64,000 nt of DNA, from NCBI GenBank assembly GCA_964016885.1, contig OZ024754.1:5518001-5582000 (forward strand). The letters run 5' to 3'. Under the pieces are notes generated by a model that saw nothing but the letters and a program-made list of their open reading frames with translations, was not told the origin of the DNA and made no database searches. Shown here piece after piece: positions 17,186-60,838 of the stretch. Both the position numbers and the translations under genes were made by a program. Each line of letters starts with the position of its first letter. Positions within the stretch are counted from its first letter, which is position 1. This stretch comes from Eledone cirrhosa (lineage: Eukaryota).

Positions 17186-17250
17186 TATTTCATTATACAT
17201 ATTTCAGGGATACCACATTAAATTATGGCATGCCTTCATCAGACAAAATA
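17186..17250 (-). ncRNA. Type I hammerhead ribozyme (family B copy beginning at 17146)
   Basis: Reverse complement: tattttgt CTGATGA agg...cct GAAA tatgta TA atgaaata. Confidence 0.85.
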
Positions 17251-18150
17251 CAATATATAACAGTTTTACAAATAGGTTTGACGTACCCTTTAAAATACAA
17301 CCATTCCTTTTGGAGGCTGTCTGGATAGTGATTTGTTTATATAATAAGTCATAGTGTTAAGCACAATTAGAAAAAGACGGAGAGAAAGAAAGAGAAAAGA
17401 ACAAAGACAGAGAGAGAGAAAGAAAAGAGAAAGAAAACCTGGAGAAATATCGGAGAGAGAGAGAAATGTATGGAGAAAAGAAAGAGATAGATAAAGATAG
17501 GAGGAAATAAAAAAGAATATGTATATATATATATATATGTATATTCCTTGAAATCTCTAAGAAATTTTGACATGCCACTATTTGATATTAAAAGAGGAAA
17601 AGTGCCACTTAATACAGACTCTAAAATATCTTGGAACAGCAACAAAAATAAGAACTTACACAAACAACAGCGGAATCAATAATAATATGGTATTGAAATG
17701 AAATATTTCTACAATAGAATATGAATATAGAAATTAGCTGTTGCAATAACACAGAGATATACGTTCGTATACACCCATATAATGAATATATTTATGGTAG
17801 GTGAGTAATATGTGTATATATATATATATATATATATATATATATATATATGTGTGTGTGTATATATATATATATATATATATATATATATATATATGTA
17901 TATATATATATGTATATATATATATATATATATATATATATGTGTGTATATATATATATATATATGTATATATATATATATATATATATATATATACATA
18001 TATATATATATATATATATATATATGTATATATATATATATATATATATATATATATATATATATATATATATATATATATGTGTGTGTGTATATATATA
18101 TATATATATATATATATATGTGTGTGTATATATATATATATATATATATA

Positions 18151-18330
18151 TTGTTTCTACTTTTGACACAAAGCCAGTAATTATTCCAGTGTATTACTGG
18201 TACTTTATTTTATCGACCCCCTAAGGATGAAAGGCAAAGTTAACCTCGGCGGGATTTGAACTCAGGCCATAAAGGGCCGTAACTCTTTGCTGCAAAGCAT
18301 GACGTCCGACCCTCTACTAATCCACCGCCC
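18151..18330 (-). mobile_element. SINE group 1
   Basis: Matches 15401-15584. Confidence 0.85.
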
Positions 18331-19185
18331 TATATATATATATATATATATATATATATATATGTGTGTGTGTGTGTGTGTGTGTGTGTGTAGGTTTGTC
18401 ATTTTTCTCTCCTTTGAAAGATAGTGTAAAAATAAATACAATTTCGTTTATCTTTTACCATGTATGTTACCTGCATAACTATAAATCATACACATTTCTT
18501 TATATACATATTCTGTTGATTTTGTATAATATTTGTATAATATTTTTTTTTATTCATCGCTTCCAAACGCTTCTGTTTGGTCGCCATTTTGTTATCGTAT
18601 TTTCGGTGTAATATTTGTTTTTTCCATGCGATTTTTTTTTTATTCGTTTGGTATTTTGGTGATTGGGTGTGTGAGGGGTGATCGTGTGCCTGGTTCGAAT
18701 CATTATTCAGATTACCTTCAGCTAATTTCTTCGAGGAGAAATTTCTATCTCTTTTATTAGATTATAATATAAGAAAAATAAAAGAAAATACATATATAAA
18801 TATAAATAGAGTGAGAGGGAGGGAAAGAGAGGGTGAGAGATGCATACATGTACAGGATAATATATTTATAAATAACTATAAAGGTATATGTATGCATGCA
18901 TGTATATATATGTATATATTTATATTATGTATATATTTATATTATGTATATATTTATATTTATATACGTATATATTATATTATATATATATTTATATATG
19001 AACACATACAAACTCGCACATATACACCGACACAAACACCCACATATATATGTATGTGTGTGTGTGTGTGTGTGCGGATGTGTGTGTGTGTGTGTGTATG
19101 TGTGTGTGTGGGGTGTATGTGTAGGTATGTATTTCCTAAAGCTATTCTGAAATTTGTGGTCTAAAGAAGAAAATAATAAAGTATC

Positions 19186-19651
19186 AGCGGCGGCAGCAGC
19201 AGCAGTAGTAGAAGTAGTAGTAGCAGTAGTAGCAACAGCAGCAGTAGTTTTAGTAGTAGTAGTAGCAGTAGTAGTAACAGTAACAGCAGTAGTAGTAGTA
19301 GTAGTAGTAGTAGTAGTAGTAGTAGTAGTAGTAGTAGCCTCAGCAGCAGCTGTAGCAGTAGTAGTAGTAGTGGTAGTACTAGTAGTAATAACAATAGTAG
19401 TAGCAATGGTAGTAGTAGTAGTAGTAGTAGTAACAGTAGCAGTAGTAGTAGTATTAGTAGTAACAGTAGCAGTAGTAGTAGTAGTAGTAGTAGTAGTAGT
19501 AGTAGTAGTAGTAGTAGCAGCAGTAGTAGTAGTAGGAGTATTAACAGTAACGGTAGTAGTAACAGCAGCAGTAGTTTTAGTAGTAGTAGTAGTAGTAGTA
19601 GTAGTAGTAGTAGTAGCAGTAGTAGTAACAGTAACAGCAGCAGTAGTAGTA
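19186..19651. repeat. (GTA/GCA)n trinucleotide array
   Basis: Direct reading. Similar arrays: (TTC)n 5777-5860, (ACT)n 45300-45505, (GAT/GAC)n 56405-56587. Confidence 0.95.
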
Positions 19652-20893
19652 CATCGACATAAAACCTGATTAAATGTTAAAAATGCACTGGCTGTGCATA
19701 AACATTGATTTTGATAAGATTTATTAGATAAACATGGCGGGTTCAAATAGTGTTGAAGGTCAGAGGGAAATATTGTAAACAGAGCAATATAATGGAACAA
19801 AAAAAAAAAGACCAAAGTAGAGAAAAAAATCATATATTAATTGACAAAATGTTTCATGAAAAAAAGCACTTTTTTTCCGAAATGAAGTGCAATATTCCTA
19901 CGTAAAATGCATACACACCCTATATATATATATATTATGGAATACTGTTGACTTTGCTACAATGTTTTTTATACCTTCCATTTATATATATATATATATA
20001 TATATATATATATATATATATATATATATATATATATTTATATATATATATATATATATATATATATATATATATATTTTATATATATATATATGTATAT
20101 ATATATATATATATATATATATATATATATATATATTTATATATATGTATATATATATATATTCAATATTTGTGTTTAGGTTTCAATGTATTTATGATAT
20201 ATACATATATATATATATATATATATATATATGTATGTATATATATATATATGTGTGTGTATGTATATATATATATATATACATATATATATATATATAC
20301 ATTTATATATATAATTATATAAACATATATATATAATTATATATACATATACATATATATAATTAAGATTGATTTTTCCGAAGGGGATCTGGAAACAGGC
20401 ATAGTTAAATAATGTACTCAATACATTAGTAGATAAAAATACATAATACATAAATATATATATGTGTATATAAATATATATATATATATATTTATGAATA
20501 TATATACATATATATATATATATATATATATATATATATATATATATATATATATATATATATATATATATATATATATGTATATATAAAAATTACATGA
20601 ATCAAAGTTCTGTTTAAACCATTTATTTATACATACATGTATATAAAAATATATCTATCTATATAAATGTAAATATACACATATCTCTCTCTCTCTCTCT
20701 CTCTCTCTATATATATATATATATATATATATATATATATATATATATATATATATATATATATATATATATATATATATATATACATACACATACGCGC
20801 ACATATAGACAAACACATATGCGCACCTCTACTCATACATAAACAATACAGTGCAAGGGGAAAATATATTACCTTAACATTTTAACATAGAAC

Positions 20894-58435: not shown

Positions 58436-59799
58436 CTAGAGCAAATAAATGAAAAAGAAAAGGAATCCATTCTAGTAGCTTAATTAATTCTTTAACTTCT
58501 CCTACGTGATTAAACTTACGTTGCAGTGTTTATCTTTAATTTCACCATAATAAGTTGTAATGCATCACTCACATTATATGCAACGTCCATTTGCTTCTAT
58601 AATCTTGGATAATTGTGAGGTTCACTAAATTCTGTGAAATTTATCAAGTTACAGTTTGTTCTCTAGTGCTCTTCCTACTGCTGCTGTTGCTGCTGCACCG
58701 TTCTTGATGTTGTTGTTGCTGCTGCTGTTTCTGCTGCTGCTGAAAATTATCAATACTTATTTCTCAAAACATGTGTTCACAAATTTCTGTCGCAATTTAC
58801 GAAATGGCATGTACATTTAACAAATCATGCGATTATTTCTAAATGATTAATTCTCTTCACGGCATAGAATAGGTTTAGTAATGCCAGCTGAAATAGATTT
58901 TTCTTTTCACAGGAGCAGCATAGCAGGTATTTTATCATTACTCGTGGATTGCACACTTCATAAGCTTTAAAATAAGCAATATTTTTTCCAGTGTATGTTT
59001 ATTTTCCTTTTTTTATCATTACCTAGAATACAAATATTTAGAAGGATTTTCATACCAGTCGAAATTGCTACACACATCACTTGATACTTGTAAAAACAGA
59101 ACTACTGAGGCATATAAAATATATATACTCAGTTAATATTTAGATAACTTAGATTACATTTTGATTATATTTCTTTTTATGAAGTTTTTTTTTTCTTTCA
59201 TAGATATATTTTTCTTTGCTCGAAAGTAAAAAAATAATAAAATATTCTTCCAAATCCGTTCATCTTCAGAGCTGTAATAAACAGAGTTTGTAAAGAAATT
59301 TCATCCATGTTATGTTAAAACGTTACAAATATATACTAAGTTGTGTCCTGTTAGTGAAAGCACGAATACTACATATGTTTCTCCCTGTAGTTTAAAAGGT
59401 ATATATTTAACAATACAGAAATATTTATGCTGCATTAAATAACAGATATAAATTATTTGTGGATAAAATTCAAGCCTAAGGAAGATGGAAATAGTATCTT
59501 GTGAGATGTGTAAATACTCTGCTTCCTTGCAAAATTGTCTCATGATATAGTATAATATACAATATCGATATAATATAATATAATATAATACAATATAATT
59601 GTTCTACTTTTGGCACAAGGCCAGCAATTACTCAGTGCATTACAGGTACTTTATTTTATCGAACACAACATATGTTTCTTCCTGTAGTTTAAAAGGTATA
59701 TATTTAAATATAATACAATATAATGCATAATAAAATATAATACATTATACAACATAGTATATATACAATATATATATATATATATATATATATATATAT

Positions 59800-59983
59800 A
59801 ACGAAGGAGGTGTGGTAAGGAACCAGATGGACCATAACGCACCAGAGTACTCAATACTTAGGGTAGTAGAGTGGGTAATAGGAAAATGTTTAACCCCGAC
59901 GGCAGAGCTCAAGCCGTTTCGACGGCTATTTCTGAAAATAGCCGTCGAAACGGCTTGAGCTCTGCCGTTGGGGTTAAACATTT
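59800..59983 (-). mobile_element. Family A copy 6
   Basis: Reverse copy. The variant aaatgtttaacccc/ggggttaaacattt is present in both arms. Confidence 0.85.
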
Positions 59984-60033
59984 ATATATATATATATATA
60001 TATATATATATATATATATATATATATATATAT

Positions 60034-60151
60034 GAAAAGAGATGGGACCAGGACGGCAGAGCTCCGGCGTTTCGATCGCTAGTTCCGATCAGTTCGGATC
60101 TAGCTGTCGAAACGGTCGGAGCTCTGATGTTGTGGTCCTGACTCTTTTCCC
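60034..60151. mobile_element. Diverged family-A-like imperfect palindrome in (TA)n
   Basis: gaaaagag...gacggcagagctccggcgtttcga / tcgaaacggtcggagctctga...ctcttttc. Confidence 0.7.
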
Positions 60152-60434
60152 ATATATATATATTGTATATACACTATGTTATATAATGTATTATATTTTA
60201 TTAAGCATTAGAGAGAGAGATAGGGGGCGGGGAGAGGGAGAGGTTGATTTAGGAAGCATTGGGTAGATTTGAAATTTGAAATGGGTACGTCACTACACAA
60301 ATGACCATACTAATAGTTGATCAATATAAATAAAAGTTGAGAAAATAGTAAAGTAATCGGTACATAAACACACACTCGCATATATATATATATATATATA
60401 TATATATATATATATATATATATATATATATATA

Positions 60435-60838
60435 TGCAAAGTTTTATTTAAATTGTTGGGTTACAACGAGTAAATATTTATAACTGATATAAAAGCACTC
60501 AACAAGTATTTGGAGTATATTTACGATATTAAATAAATGGAAACTATATTTATAAAACCATATTTATTTCATTATATATATTTCAGGGATATCACATTAA
60601 AAATATGGTATGCCTTCTTCAGACAAAATACAATATAAACAGTCTTATAACTACCAAATCAACTTTTTAAATGGAAGATGAAGTTGAAAGGTATGTCAAA
60701 TCTATCTATTTATAAGACTGTTTATATTGTATTTTGTCTGAAGAAGGCATACCATATTTTTAATGTGATATCCCTGAAATATATATAATGAAATAAATAT
60801 GGTTTTATAAATATAGTTTCCATTTATTTAATATCGTA
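60435..60838 (-). mobile_element. Family B fold-back element (129-bp arms)
   Basis: 60522-60650 is inverted relative to 60710-60838. Tail at 60435-60521; (TA)n flanks. Confidence 0.9.
60730..60795 (+). ncRNA. Type I hammerhead ribozyme (family B), mirrored on the minus strand at ~60565-60630
   Basis: tattttgt CTGAAGA agg...cct GAAA tatata TA atgaaata. Confidence 0.85.

Follow-up and report, generated by a model that had tools for sequence, protein, structure and literature searches.

Five loci in a 64,000-nucleotide stretch of the Eledone cirrhosa genome (GenBank assembly GCA_964016885.1, contig OZ024754.1, positions 5,518,001–5,582,000, forward strand; hereafter the window, whose own coordinates are used below) carry a small hammerhead ribozyme motif. 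They raise three questions: which element the motif belongs to, whether its fold is kept by selection, and how it would act. An initial annotation of the window had proposed selection for ribozyme activity in the parent elements and had read the palindromic stem III as a sign of cleavage between two copies. Judged from their sequence, the five loci are the 5′-truncated ends of a high-copy Penelope-like element (PLE) of the Hydra clade. This host element had been missed; with it in place, the hammerhead is an expected feature of a described clade and no surprise.

Host element

The genome is 3.0 Gb in size and rich in microsatellites; the copy numbers given here are from exact-pattern or tag searches of it. 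A 30-nt tag immediately downstream of the motif had 38,868 exact matches genome-wide, a 21-nt tag with at most 1 mismatch had 63,882 compared with 22 for a control, and the family is present in tens of thousands of copies. Pieces of one open reading frame (ORF) were found in 7 of the 10 regions fetched around tag matches that were nearby or on opposite strands. One region, L037, has the whole element design: an inverted short arm, a pseudo-long terminal repeat (pLTR) with a hammerhead at 1445, the ORF from 1682 to 3899 with one frameshift, a 3′ region of ~1.3 kb, and a second hammerhead at 5192, with (TA)n on both sides. These two hammerheads are on the same strand, 3,747 nt apart, and flank the ORF, whose first ATG is ~190 nt downstream of the predicted cut site. 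In another region, L034, 583 codons are open from the reverse transcriptase (RT) to the stop.

The single ORF encodes an RT followed by a C-terminal GIY-YIG-type endonuclease (EN) and includes the motifs RWR at 37, DKT at 118, YRDD, CxCx5C, IIY..YVG, CxxC, and CxH, the linker and endonuclease motifs reading CNCRDRSKC, CDLC, and CRH; two further strings, GVKF at 84 and DKA at 147, were left without an alignment position. The Hydra clade has been defined by RW[K/R], the change of DKG to DKT, CxCx5C, CxxC, and CxH (PMC8557442), and our assignment is based on these motifs and on comparison by eye with published Hydra proteins. The Hydra traits of (TA)n targets, pLTRs, an inverted truncated copy, and a tail at one end are all present, and canonical hammerheads are described as universal in the clade (Craig et al. 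2021, PMC8557442). No Pfam match was obtained for the ORF. A homolog search returned 784 proteins, nearly all unnamed, with 42–46% identity for the best and 41% for the best named one, a hypothetical protein of Argonauta. Naiad PLEs, described as having an N-terminal endonuclease and no canonical hammerhead, were rejected because the endonuclease here is C-terminal, and Nematis was rejected on motifs and domain order. A non-LTR retrozyme identity was also rejected, since the family has an ORF and no head-to-tail array of hammerhead monomers was found at the five loci. In the window, the last 51 residues of the ORF are encoded at 40839–40994 and the element continues to the hammerhead at 42516, which ties the hammerhead directly to the element. 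Insertions of the family end ~50 or ~140 nt past the predicted cut; in 27 of 28 inverted pairs, one end is short and the other long.

Constraint on the catalytic core

The motif has the CUGANGA and GAAA core, the UH site, and the free N7 of a type I hammerhead, with three helices and an open stem I; stem III is credible only between molecules. The 130 loci and the window gave 145 matches, 138 with the tag, of which 131 covered the motif and 7 were partial. Eight were dropped for truncations or deletions, and the 123 parsed without large indels formed 87 insertion groups, sampled on the downstream tag only, with almost every one coming from the beginning of contig C1. Changes were placed by parsimony on the tree of the 87 and counted as internal (lineage-level, at least 3 tips) or terminal (private).

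The 11 core positions had 0 internal and 7 terminal changes, compared with 123 and 101 in the flanks and loop II (p = 0.0044); the core, H17, and the C·C pair of stem II taken together had 0 and 12 (p = 1e-4). No lineage-level change occurred at C3–A6, G8, A9, G12–A15.1, U16.1, or H17. N7 had 5 internal changes and shows all four bases, each in 8–63 insertions, so position 7 is indeed free, as first noticed at the window loci. Variant core alleles were never present in more than 2 insertions at any position (n = 87), and the core of a 105-sequence set, itself partly conditioned on the core, had 0 internal and 9 terminal changes. Genome-wide, copies with a changed G12 numbered 772 versus roughly 44,600 intact ones, by patterns that differ slightly. 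Among 100 changed copies listed, A, C, and T all occurred on many subfamily backgrounds, as expected for decay. A core-removing deletion was rejected as an amplified lineage, being seen twice in the sample and in 5 copies genome-wide. The core shows no protection after insertion: differences between paired arms, few in number, were found at 5 of 275 core positions and 10 of 1360 others. Selection on the hammerhead in parent lineages, which the five loci cannot show by themselves, is thus supported in the larger sample by the lineage-versus-private comparison, the pair counts below, and the genome-wide counts.

Pairing in stems I and II

Lineage-level changes in the stems mostly keep pairing, with keep:break counts of 22:4 for internal and 15:28 for terminal changes (p = 6e-5; tree of 87) and, for transitions only, of 22:3 and 15:11 (p = 0.027). 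The 105-copy set comprises distinct copies from three families; 95.6% of its cells were paired (98.2% in stem I and 92.7% in stem II), compared with 36–52% in slid controls, and 7 of 9 stem II pairs had changed on both sides. A shuffle control, which ignores relatedness, reached neither the cell counts nor the covariation score (0/500), but it did reach the count of two-sided pairs (see below). In the 33-sequence cross-family set, the shuffle reached the two-sided count in 16/500. RNAalifold recovered stem II alone.

Stem II is composed of 3 bp, a pyrimidine mismatch, and a further 6–12 bp. The mismatch is fixed, with 0 internal changes, and is C·U in the sister family with TGCGCA in stem III (described below). 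The 10.1/11.1 pair next to the core is free, and A-U, G·U, U·U, A·C, and A·A all occur; with A-U in 63, G·U in 29, G-C in 3, and other combinations in 10 of the 105 copies, G10.1–C11.1 is not conserved here. Many Hydra hammerheads listed in PMC8557442 (File S2) likewise show U facing U beside the core. In the TGATAT group, the mismatches at this position were 78 C and 22 A among 100 listed. The initial statement that the motif varies in ways that preserve its structure holds for most lineage-level stem changes, but not for 10.1/11.1 or for the distal stem II pair, which a whole subfamily group lacks.

Stem III palindrome and sister families

Altogether, 45,687 copies match the stem III patterns. 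The centre is TA or TG in 44,625 and TC or TT in 202, and 860 start with another base (51 CG and 12 CA among 100 listed). The CG centre marks the family of the 36954 copy (TACGTA), whose members flank their own Hydra-type ORF with 60–67% amino acid identity to the main family in the RT and 36–47% in the EN region. The TGCGCA family, found in the flanking DNA (L127, at G000:C14 ~5.59–5.60 Mb, and L200–L229), had 27,080 pattern matches, with TGCGCA in 95 of 100 listed, or ~26,000 copies. It shares stem I, the core, the AUA site, and the short and long ends with the main family, its stem II is 3 bp, C·U, and 12 bp, and its own Hydra ORF has 51–55% identity in the N-terminal/RT part. A fourth family, the GGAC type (7,844 matches), keeps the core, stems I and III, and C·C, and its tail has diverged; an ORF in one GGAC region, L164, is separated from the hammerhead by a TA tract, and none was found in five more GGAC regions. 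At L164:908-1 (−), fragments of yet another Hydra-type ORF (40–61% identity) lie beside the GGAC-type hammerhead.

In the cross-family alignment of 33 hand-picked sequences, the stem III cells were 100% paired and both inner pairs had changed on both sides. Pairing at these two positions is possible only when two hammerheads come together; in a monomer, the inner stem III bases would be loop, and the second inner pair would need a 2-nt loop. By nearest-neighbour energies, forming stem III is unfavourable in the monomer (+2.1 to +2.9 kcal/mol) and brings a gain of 0.8–5.1 kcal/mol in the double hammerhead. The swap from the TATATA type to TGCGCA, changed on both sides, supports dimer cleavage. 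L037 combines a self-complementary, covarying stem III with a second copy on the same strand, which the window loci, single or inverted, do not. The proposed link from palindrome to dimer is thus strengthened by the two-sided changes and folding energies, and it does not extend to the window's own pairs, which are inverted. Small type I hammerheads of other families were also seen in flanking DNA (L039, L120, L137, L174, L195, L046, and L155), each with a self-complementary stem III.

Hammerhead arms in the window

A both-strand scan and BLAST revealed seven hammerhead arms in five insertions (Table 1). The generic scan recovered five arms with the full type I pattern (49765+, 60738+, 60622−, 37006−, and 17242−), and BLAST added two, 42524+, with A·C at the stem II base, and 49610−, with G12A. 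The core sequences first reported, CTGATGA at 42524 and 17242–17236 (−), CTGACGA at 49765 and 37006–37000 (−), and CTGAAGA at 60738, are present, as are the AAG/CTT stem II base and different inner hairpin of the 36954 copy and the stem III variants TATATA, TATGTA, and TACGTA; the two cleavage positions predicted then (after 49814 and 60787) are correctly located.

Two exceptions to the fold had been named, the A·C of the 42516 copy and the G12A at 49572. Both are real, and the list was incomplete: (i) where the 49765 copy has a distal C-G pair in stem II, both 60.6/60.7 kb arms have C·A and the 42516 copy has G·A; and (ii) a C·C mismatch follows the third stem II pair in 7/7 arms. The A·C is no exception but a trait of an amplified subfamily, with 5,481 copies mismatched at 10.1/11.1. 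The G12A is private damage, being the single difference over 171 nt between the 49.5–49.9 kb arms. Most changes in stems I and III of the five loci are transitions (A/G or C/T) on one side of a pair, and their number is too small to beat chance.

The arms at 49553–49618 and 60565–60630 are the inverted partners of those to their right. Because the window's paired arms are inverted, they cannot dimerise as a double hammerhead; read-through of them is predicted to fold as one long hairpin (−264 and −200 kcal/mol). An Rfam scan of the window showed no hammerhead among the 150 of 401 matches listed, nor was there one among the 4 matches to 49690–49870 at E ≤ 10. Those listed were of microRNA type only, caused by inverted repeats and microsatellites, and the long stem II probably lies outside the Rfam hammerhead models. 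At the 42.5 kb element, a gap of 200 N (39877–40076) is located exactly where the left arm would carry a hammerhead, and the 100% complementarity of the 762-nt arms suggests that the left arm may be very young or shaped by the assembly.

Table 1. Parts of the Hydra-clade PLE insertions in the window
Position	Strand	Feature	Remarks
17186–17250	−	Type I hammerhead motif in truncated PLE end, beside (TA)n tract	C3 at 17242; AUA site; predicted cut after 17194; truncated PLE end ~17146–17517
36954–37014	−	Hammerhead of diverged sister family (AAG/CTT base, TACGTA stem III)	Element ~36911–37226
40077–40838	−	5′-truncated inverted arm of 42.5 kb element	762 nt, 100% complementary to 41747–42508
40839–40994	+	End of putative Hydra-clade PLE ORF, last 51 codons and stop	Endonuclease CxxC and CxH motifs
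40995–42515	+	3′ untranslated/pLTR region of element	~74% identity to full-length copy L037
42516–42581	+	Hammerhead with A·C at 10.1/11.1 and G·A distal mismatch	Predicted cut after 42573; both mismatches typical of the subfamily
42582–42717	+	Long 3′ end (tail), ~140 nt past predicted cut site, then TA-rich target	
49421–49552	−	Long tail end of left arm	
49553–49618	−	Left-arm hammerhead, private G12A at 49572, likely inactive	
49757–49822	+	Right-arm hammerhead, core intact, predicted cut after 49814	Short end ~49864 into (TA)n
60565–60630	−	Left-arm hammerhead, C·A distal mismatch	Long tail to ~60436
60730–60795	+	Right-arm hammerhead, C·A distal mismatch, predicted cut after 60787	Short end ~60837 into (TA)n

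How the hammerhead may act

We consider it fairly probable that the pLTR hammerheads are kept in amplifying lineages, likely because an RNA copied from a partial tandem contains two of them, which join at the palindrome and cleave after AUA. In the case of L037, the two same-strand hammerheads would lie 3,747 nt apart on such an RNA; joined at stem III as a double hammerhead, they would free an RNA of unit length that may circularise, a scheme put forward by Cervera and de la Pena (PMC4209133; summarised in PMC6765202). Cleavage would probably be slow and helped by the element's protein. Two internal starts of reverse transcription, ~50 and ~140 nt beyond the cut, would account for the one short and one long end of the inverted pairs, in line with the two internal RT start sites shown for an anole PLE (PMC11167929). 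The window copies would be passive by-products that decay once inserted, and read-through of their inverted arms would give a long hairpin and no ribozyme.

Several observations weigh against this reading. (i) The count of two-sided pairs in the 105-sequence set was no better than shuffle (377/500), changes that recur or were moved by recombination are counted repeatedly when parsimony is applied to a short alignment, and few independent events underlie the covariation of the palindrome. (ii) At 10.1/11.1, described as a highly conserved G-C (PMC4209133) and here mostly A-U, the combinations A·C, U·U, or A·A account for 16 group-level counts among the 87 insertions; in the TGATAT group, 5,481 copies are mismatched there versus 7,259 paired, and the whole group (12,740 copies) is without the distal C-G stem II pair. 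The divergence between copies of this group is low (nearest-neighbour 0.014–0.020), which means that young lineages carry the weakest folds; in young-lineage copies, the monomer hammerhead fold has +4.1 and +2.4 kcal/mol. (iii) ViennaRNA predicts minimum-energy folds other than the hammerhead for both the monomer and the dimer. (iv) AUA is a natural but slower triplet, the slowest of the four reported as tested in ELVd (PMC1636495). (v) For the anole PLE, hammerhead mutations are reported to leave insertion in vitro unaffected, and RNA-seq reads ending at the cut site are reported as absent (PMC11167929).

An active, selected ribozyme could instead cut as a monomer folded by the RT-EN protein, the palindrome being there for another reason. 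The anole PLE hammerhead was reported to cleave only with protein added (PMC11167929), and stems I and II are long enough to fold independently. We nevertheless regard this as unlikely: the two-sided inner palindrome changes are unneeded in a monomer, in which those bases are loop, and stem III destabilises the monomer. Pairing as a dimer and help from the protein could, moreover, occur together.

Slightly less likely still is that the hammerhead-shaped fold cuts rarely if at all and is kept as a signal by which the element's protein or host factors bind or package the RNA. Such a role would suit the features of weak activity (A-U or a mismatch at 10.1/11.1 and the AUA site), the fixed stem II pyrimidine mismatch, the insertion ends 50 and 140 nt away from the cut site with none at it, and the low in vitro activity described for metazoan PLE hammerheads (PMC4209133). 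The constraint, however, matches the catalytic pattern exactly, with N7 free and the other core positions and H17 without lineage-level change.

The hammerhead might also be kept for short non-autonomous, retrozyme-like RNA circles that parasitise the PLE, a possibility raised in PMC8557442 and compatible with the absence of the ORF from most copies and with a 2026 preprint deriving animal retrozymes from PLE pLTRs. We hold this to be improbable: in three families (main, TACGTA, and TGCGCA), with RT differences of ~35–50% between their proteins, the ORF has the motif at its flanks, and at the window loci the copies are truncated and inverted within (TA)n rather than arrayed head to tail as monomers. 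Finally, an account without selection, by recent common descent with transitions opposite U or G keeping pairs by chance, would fit the mostly one-sided transitions at the window loci and a sample anchored on a conserved downstream tag, but it is very improbable and already largely refuted by the core counts (0:7 versus 123:101), by the transition-only pair fates (22:3 versus 15:11), and by the survival of the core and stem I across families with diverged flanks and proteins.

Comparison with described elements

Described Hydra-clade PLEs (PMC8557442; e.g., Hydra-1_Obim) and the present family have in common the RT followed by a C-terminal GIY-YIG, the motif set, the (TA)n targets, the inverted truncated copy with a tail, and, near the 3′ end, a type I hammerhead whose stem III is self-complementary with a loop of 0–3 nt (File S2 therein). 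Compared with them, (i) the unit is 3.7 kb here and mostly <3 kb there; (ii) the tail is ~90 nt versus 30–40; (iii) the cut triplet is AUA versus GUH in all Hydra rows of File S2; and (iv) the layout of stem II as 3 bp, a pyrimidine mismatch, and 6–12 bp and the copy number in the tens of thousands set the family apart. The hammerhead of Hydra-1_Obim, the only octopus Hydra family given in PMC8557442, differs from that of this family.

The minimal type I hammerheads of metazoan PLEs (PMC4209133) share with ours the pLTR location, the long helix II, the palindromic 15.2–16.2, tandem pairs ~3 kb apart, and opposite-strand pairs 100–700 bp apart. Compensatory changes have been described for them, and dimer cleavage was proposed and weakly shown in vitro (PMC4209133; Lunse et al. 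via PMC6765202). By contrast, the stem III palindrome here is 8 nt and not minimal, 10.1–11.1 is neither G-C nor held to pairing, and no extra base lies between 9 and 10.1 in the covarying register.

Poseidon_Ac of Anolis (Frangieh et al. 2024, PMC11167929) likewise has two internal 3′ ends that define the tail and a hammerhead in the pLTR upstream of the ORF; it belongs to a different clade, and its cut site is within the ORF start rather than upstream of the first ATG as here. Dolichopoda pDo500 (PMC2837043) and retrozymes (PMC7229834) also have a type I hammerhead in a repeat, and in pDo500 a conserved core with compensatory stem changes was read as selection, which is a precedent for our interpretation (PMC2837043). 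Retrozymes and satellites are described as non-coding tandem monomers, whereas the present family is an ORF-bearing element with inverted-truncation fragments.

Other repeats and features

A TA-flanked head-to-head repeat (window 3064–3250, 22379–22520, and 59870–59985; L037:5680–5870), probably from the ends of another PLE family, has a centre that resembles a hammerhead 3′ half (GAAAC GG.TT, followed by what may be a strand of stem I) and is cut off within stem II. A third repeat (window 7760–7930 and 60920–61060; L037:5400–5545), which forms a palindrome at 7.8 kb, has a hammerhead-like GAAGAT-CCC-GTTA-AGGG-TGAAA string without a clear UH site, and an isolated CTGATGA with a 4-bp stem II and GAAAC, without clear stem I or III, is located at 10721–10760. 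The idea of a conserved hairpin immediately after the cut site was rejected, since the copies that were folded had z values between −0.1 and +2.1. The window also contains a dispersed 617-nt repeat (4672–5288 and 48082–48698, 94% complementary, 43 kb apart) and tandem arrays at 28823–29887 (228-nt unit, 4.6 copies) and 33493–34123 (16-nt unit, 39.5 copies). A short ORF at 34857–35180 (+) is a candidate for the C-terminal end of the reverse transcriptase of an RTE-type long interspersed nuclear element, which it resembles.

Significance

Taken on its sequence, the element is a new family within the Hydra clade, with a real, selected hammerhead motif and a few unusual details. The PLE hammerhead, its place, the palindromic stem III, the covariation, and the dimer idea are already in print; in the literature searched, which covers few subscription journals, we found no paper on this family and no lineage-versus-private test in a PLE. 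The role of the hammerhead in endonuclease-bearing PLEs has been called unclear and possibly parasitic (Craig et al., PMC8557442). The large copy number of this family separates changes passed through active lineages from decay after insertion. A catalytic pattern and a palindrome held in ORF-bearing families are in vivo evolutionary evidence for a role, and the families supply natural variants for a test of the dimer.

It is possible, if somewhat short of probable, that at least four Hydra-type families have radiated in this genome (together ~79,000 copies of the hammerhead, counted with exact patterns) and share an undescribed hammerhead subtype. The constraint resolved by lineage and the swaps between palindromes would then show that autonomous PLEs need dimeric self-cleavage in order to spread. 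The subtype would be defined by the AUA site, the free 10.1–11.1, and a stem II of 3 bp that ends at a fixed pyrimidine mismatch, which may be a tertiary or protein contact, and the stem III sequence would set which families can pair together.

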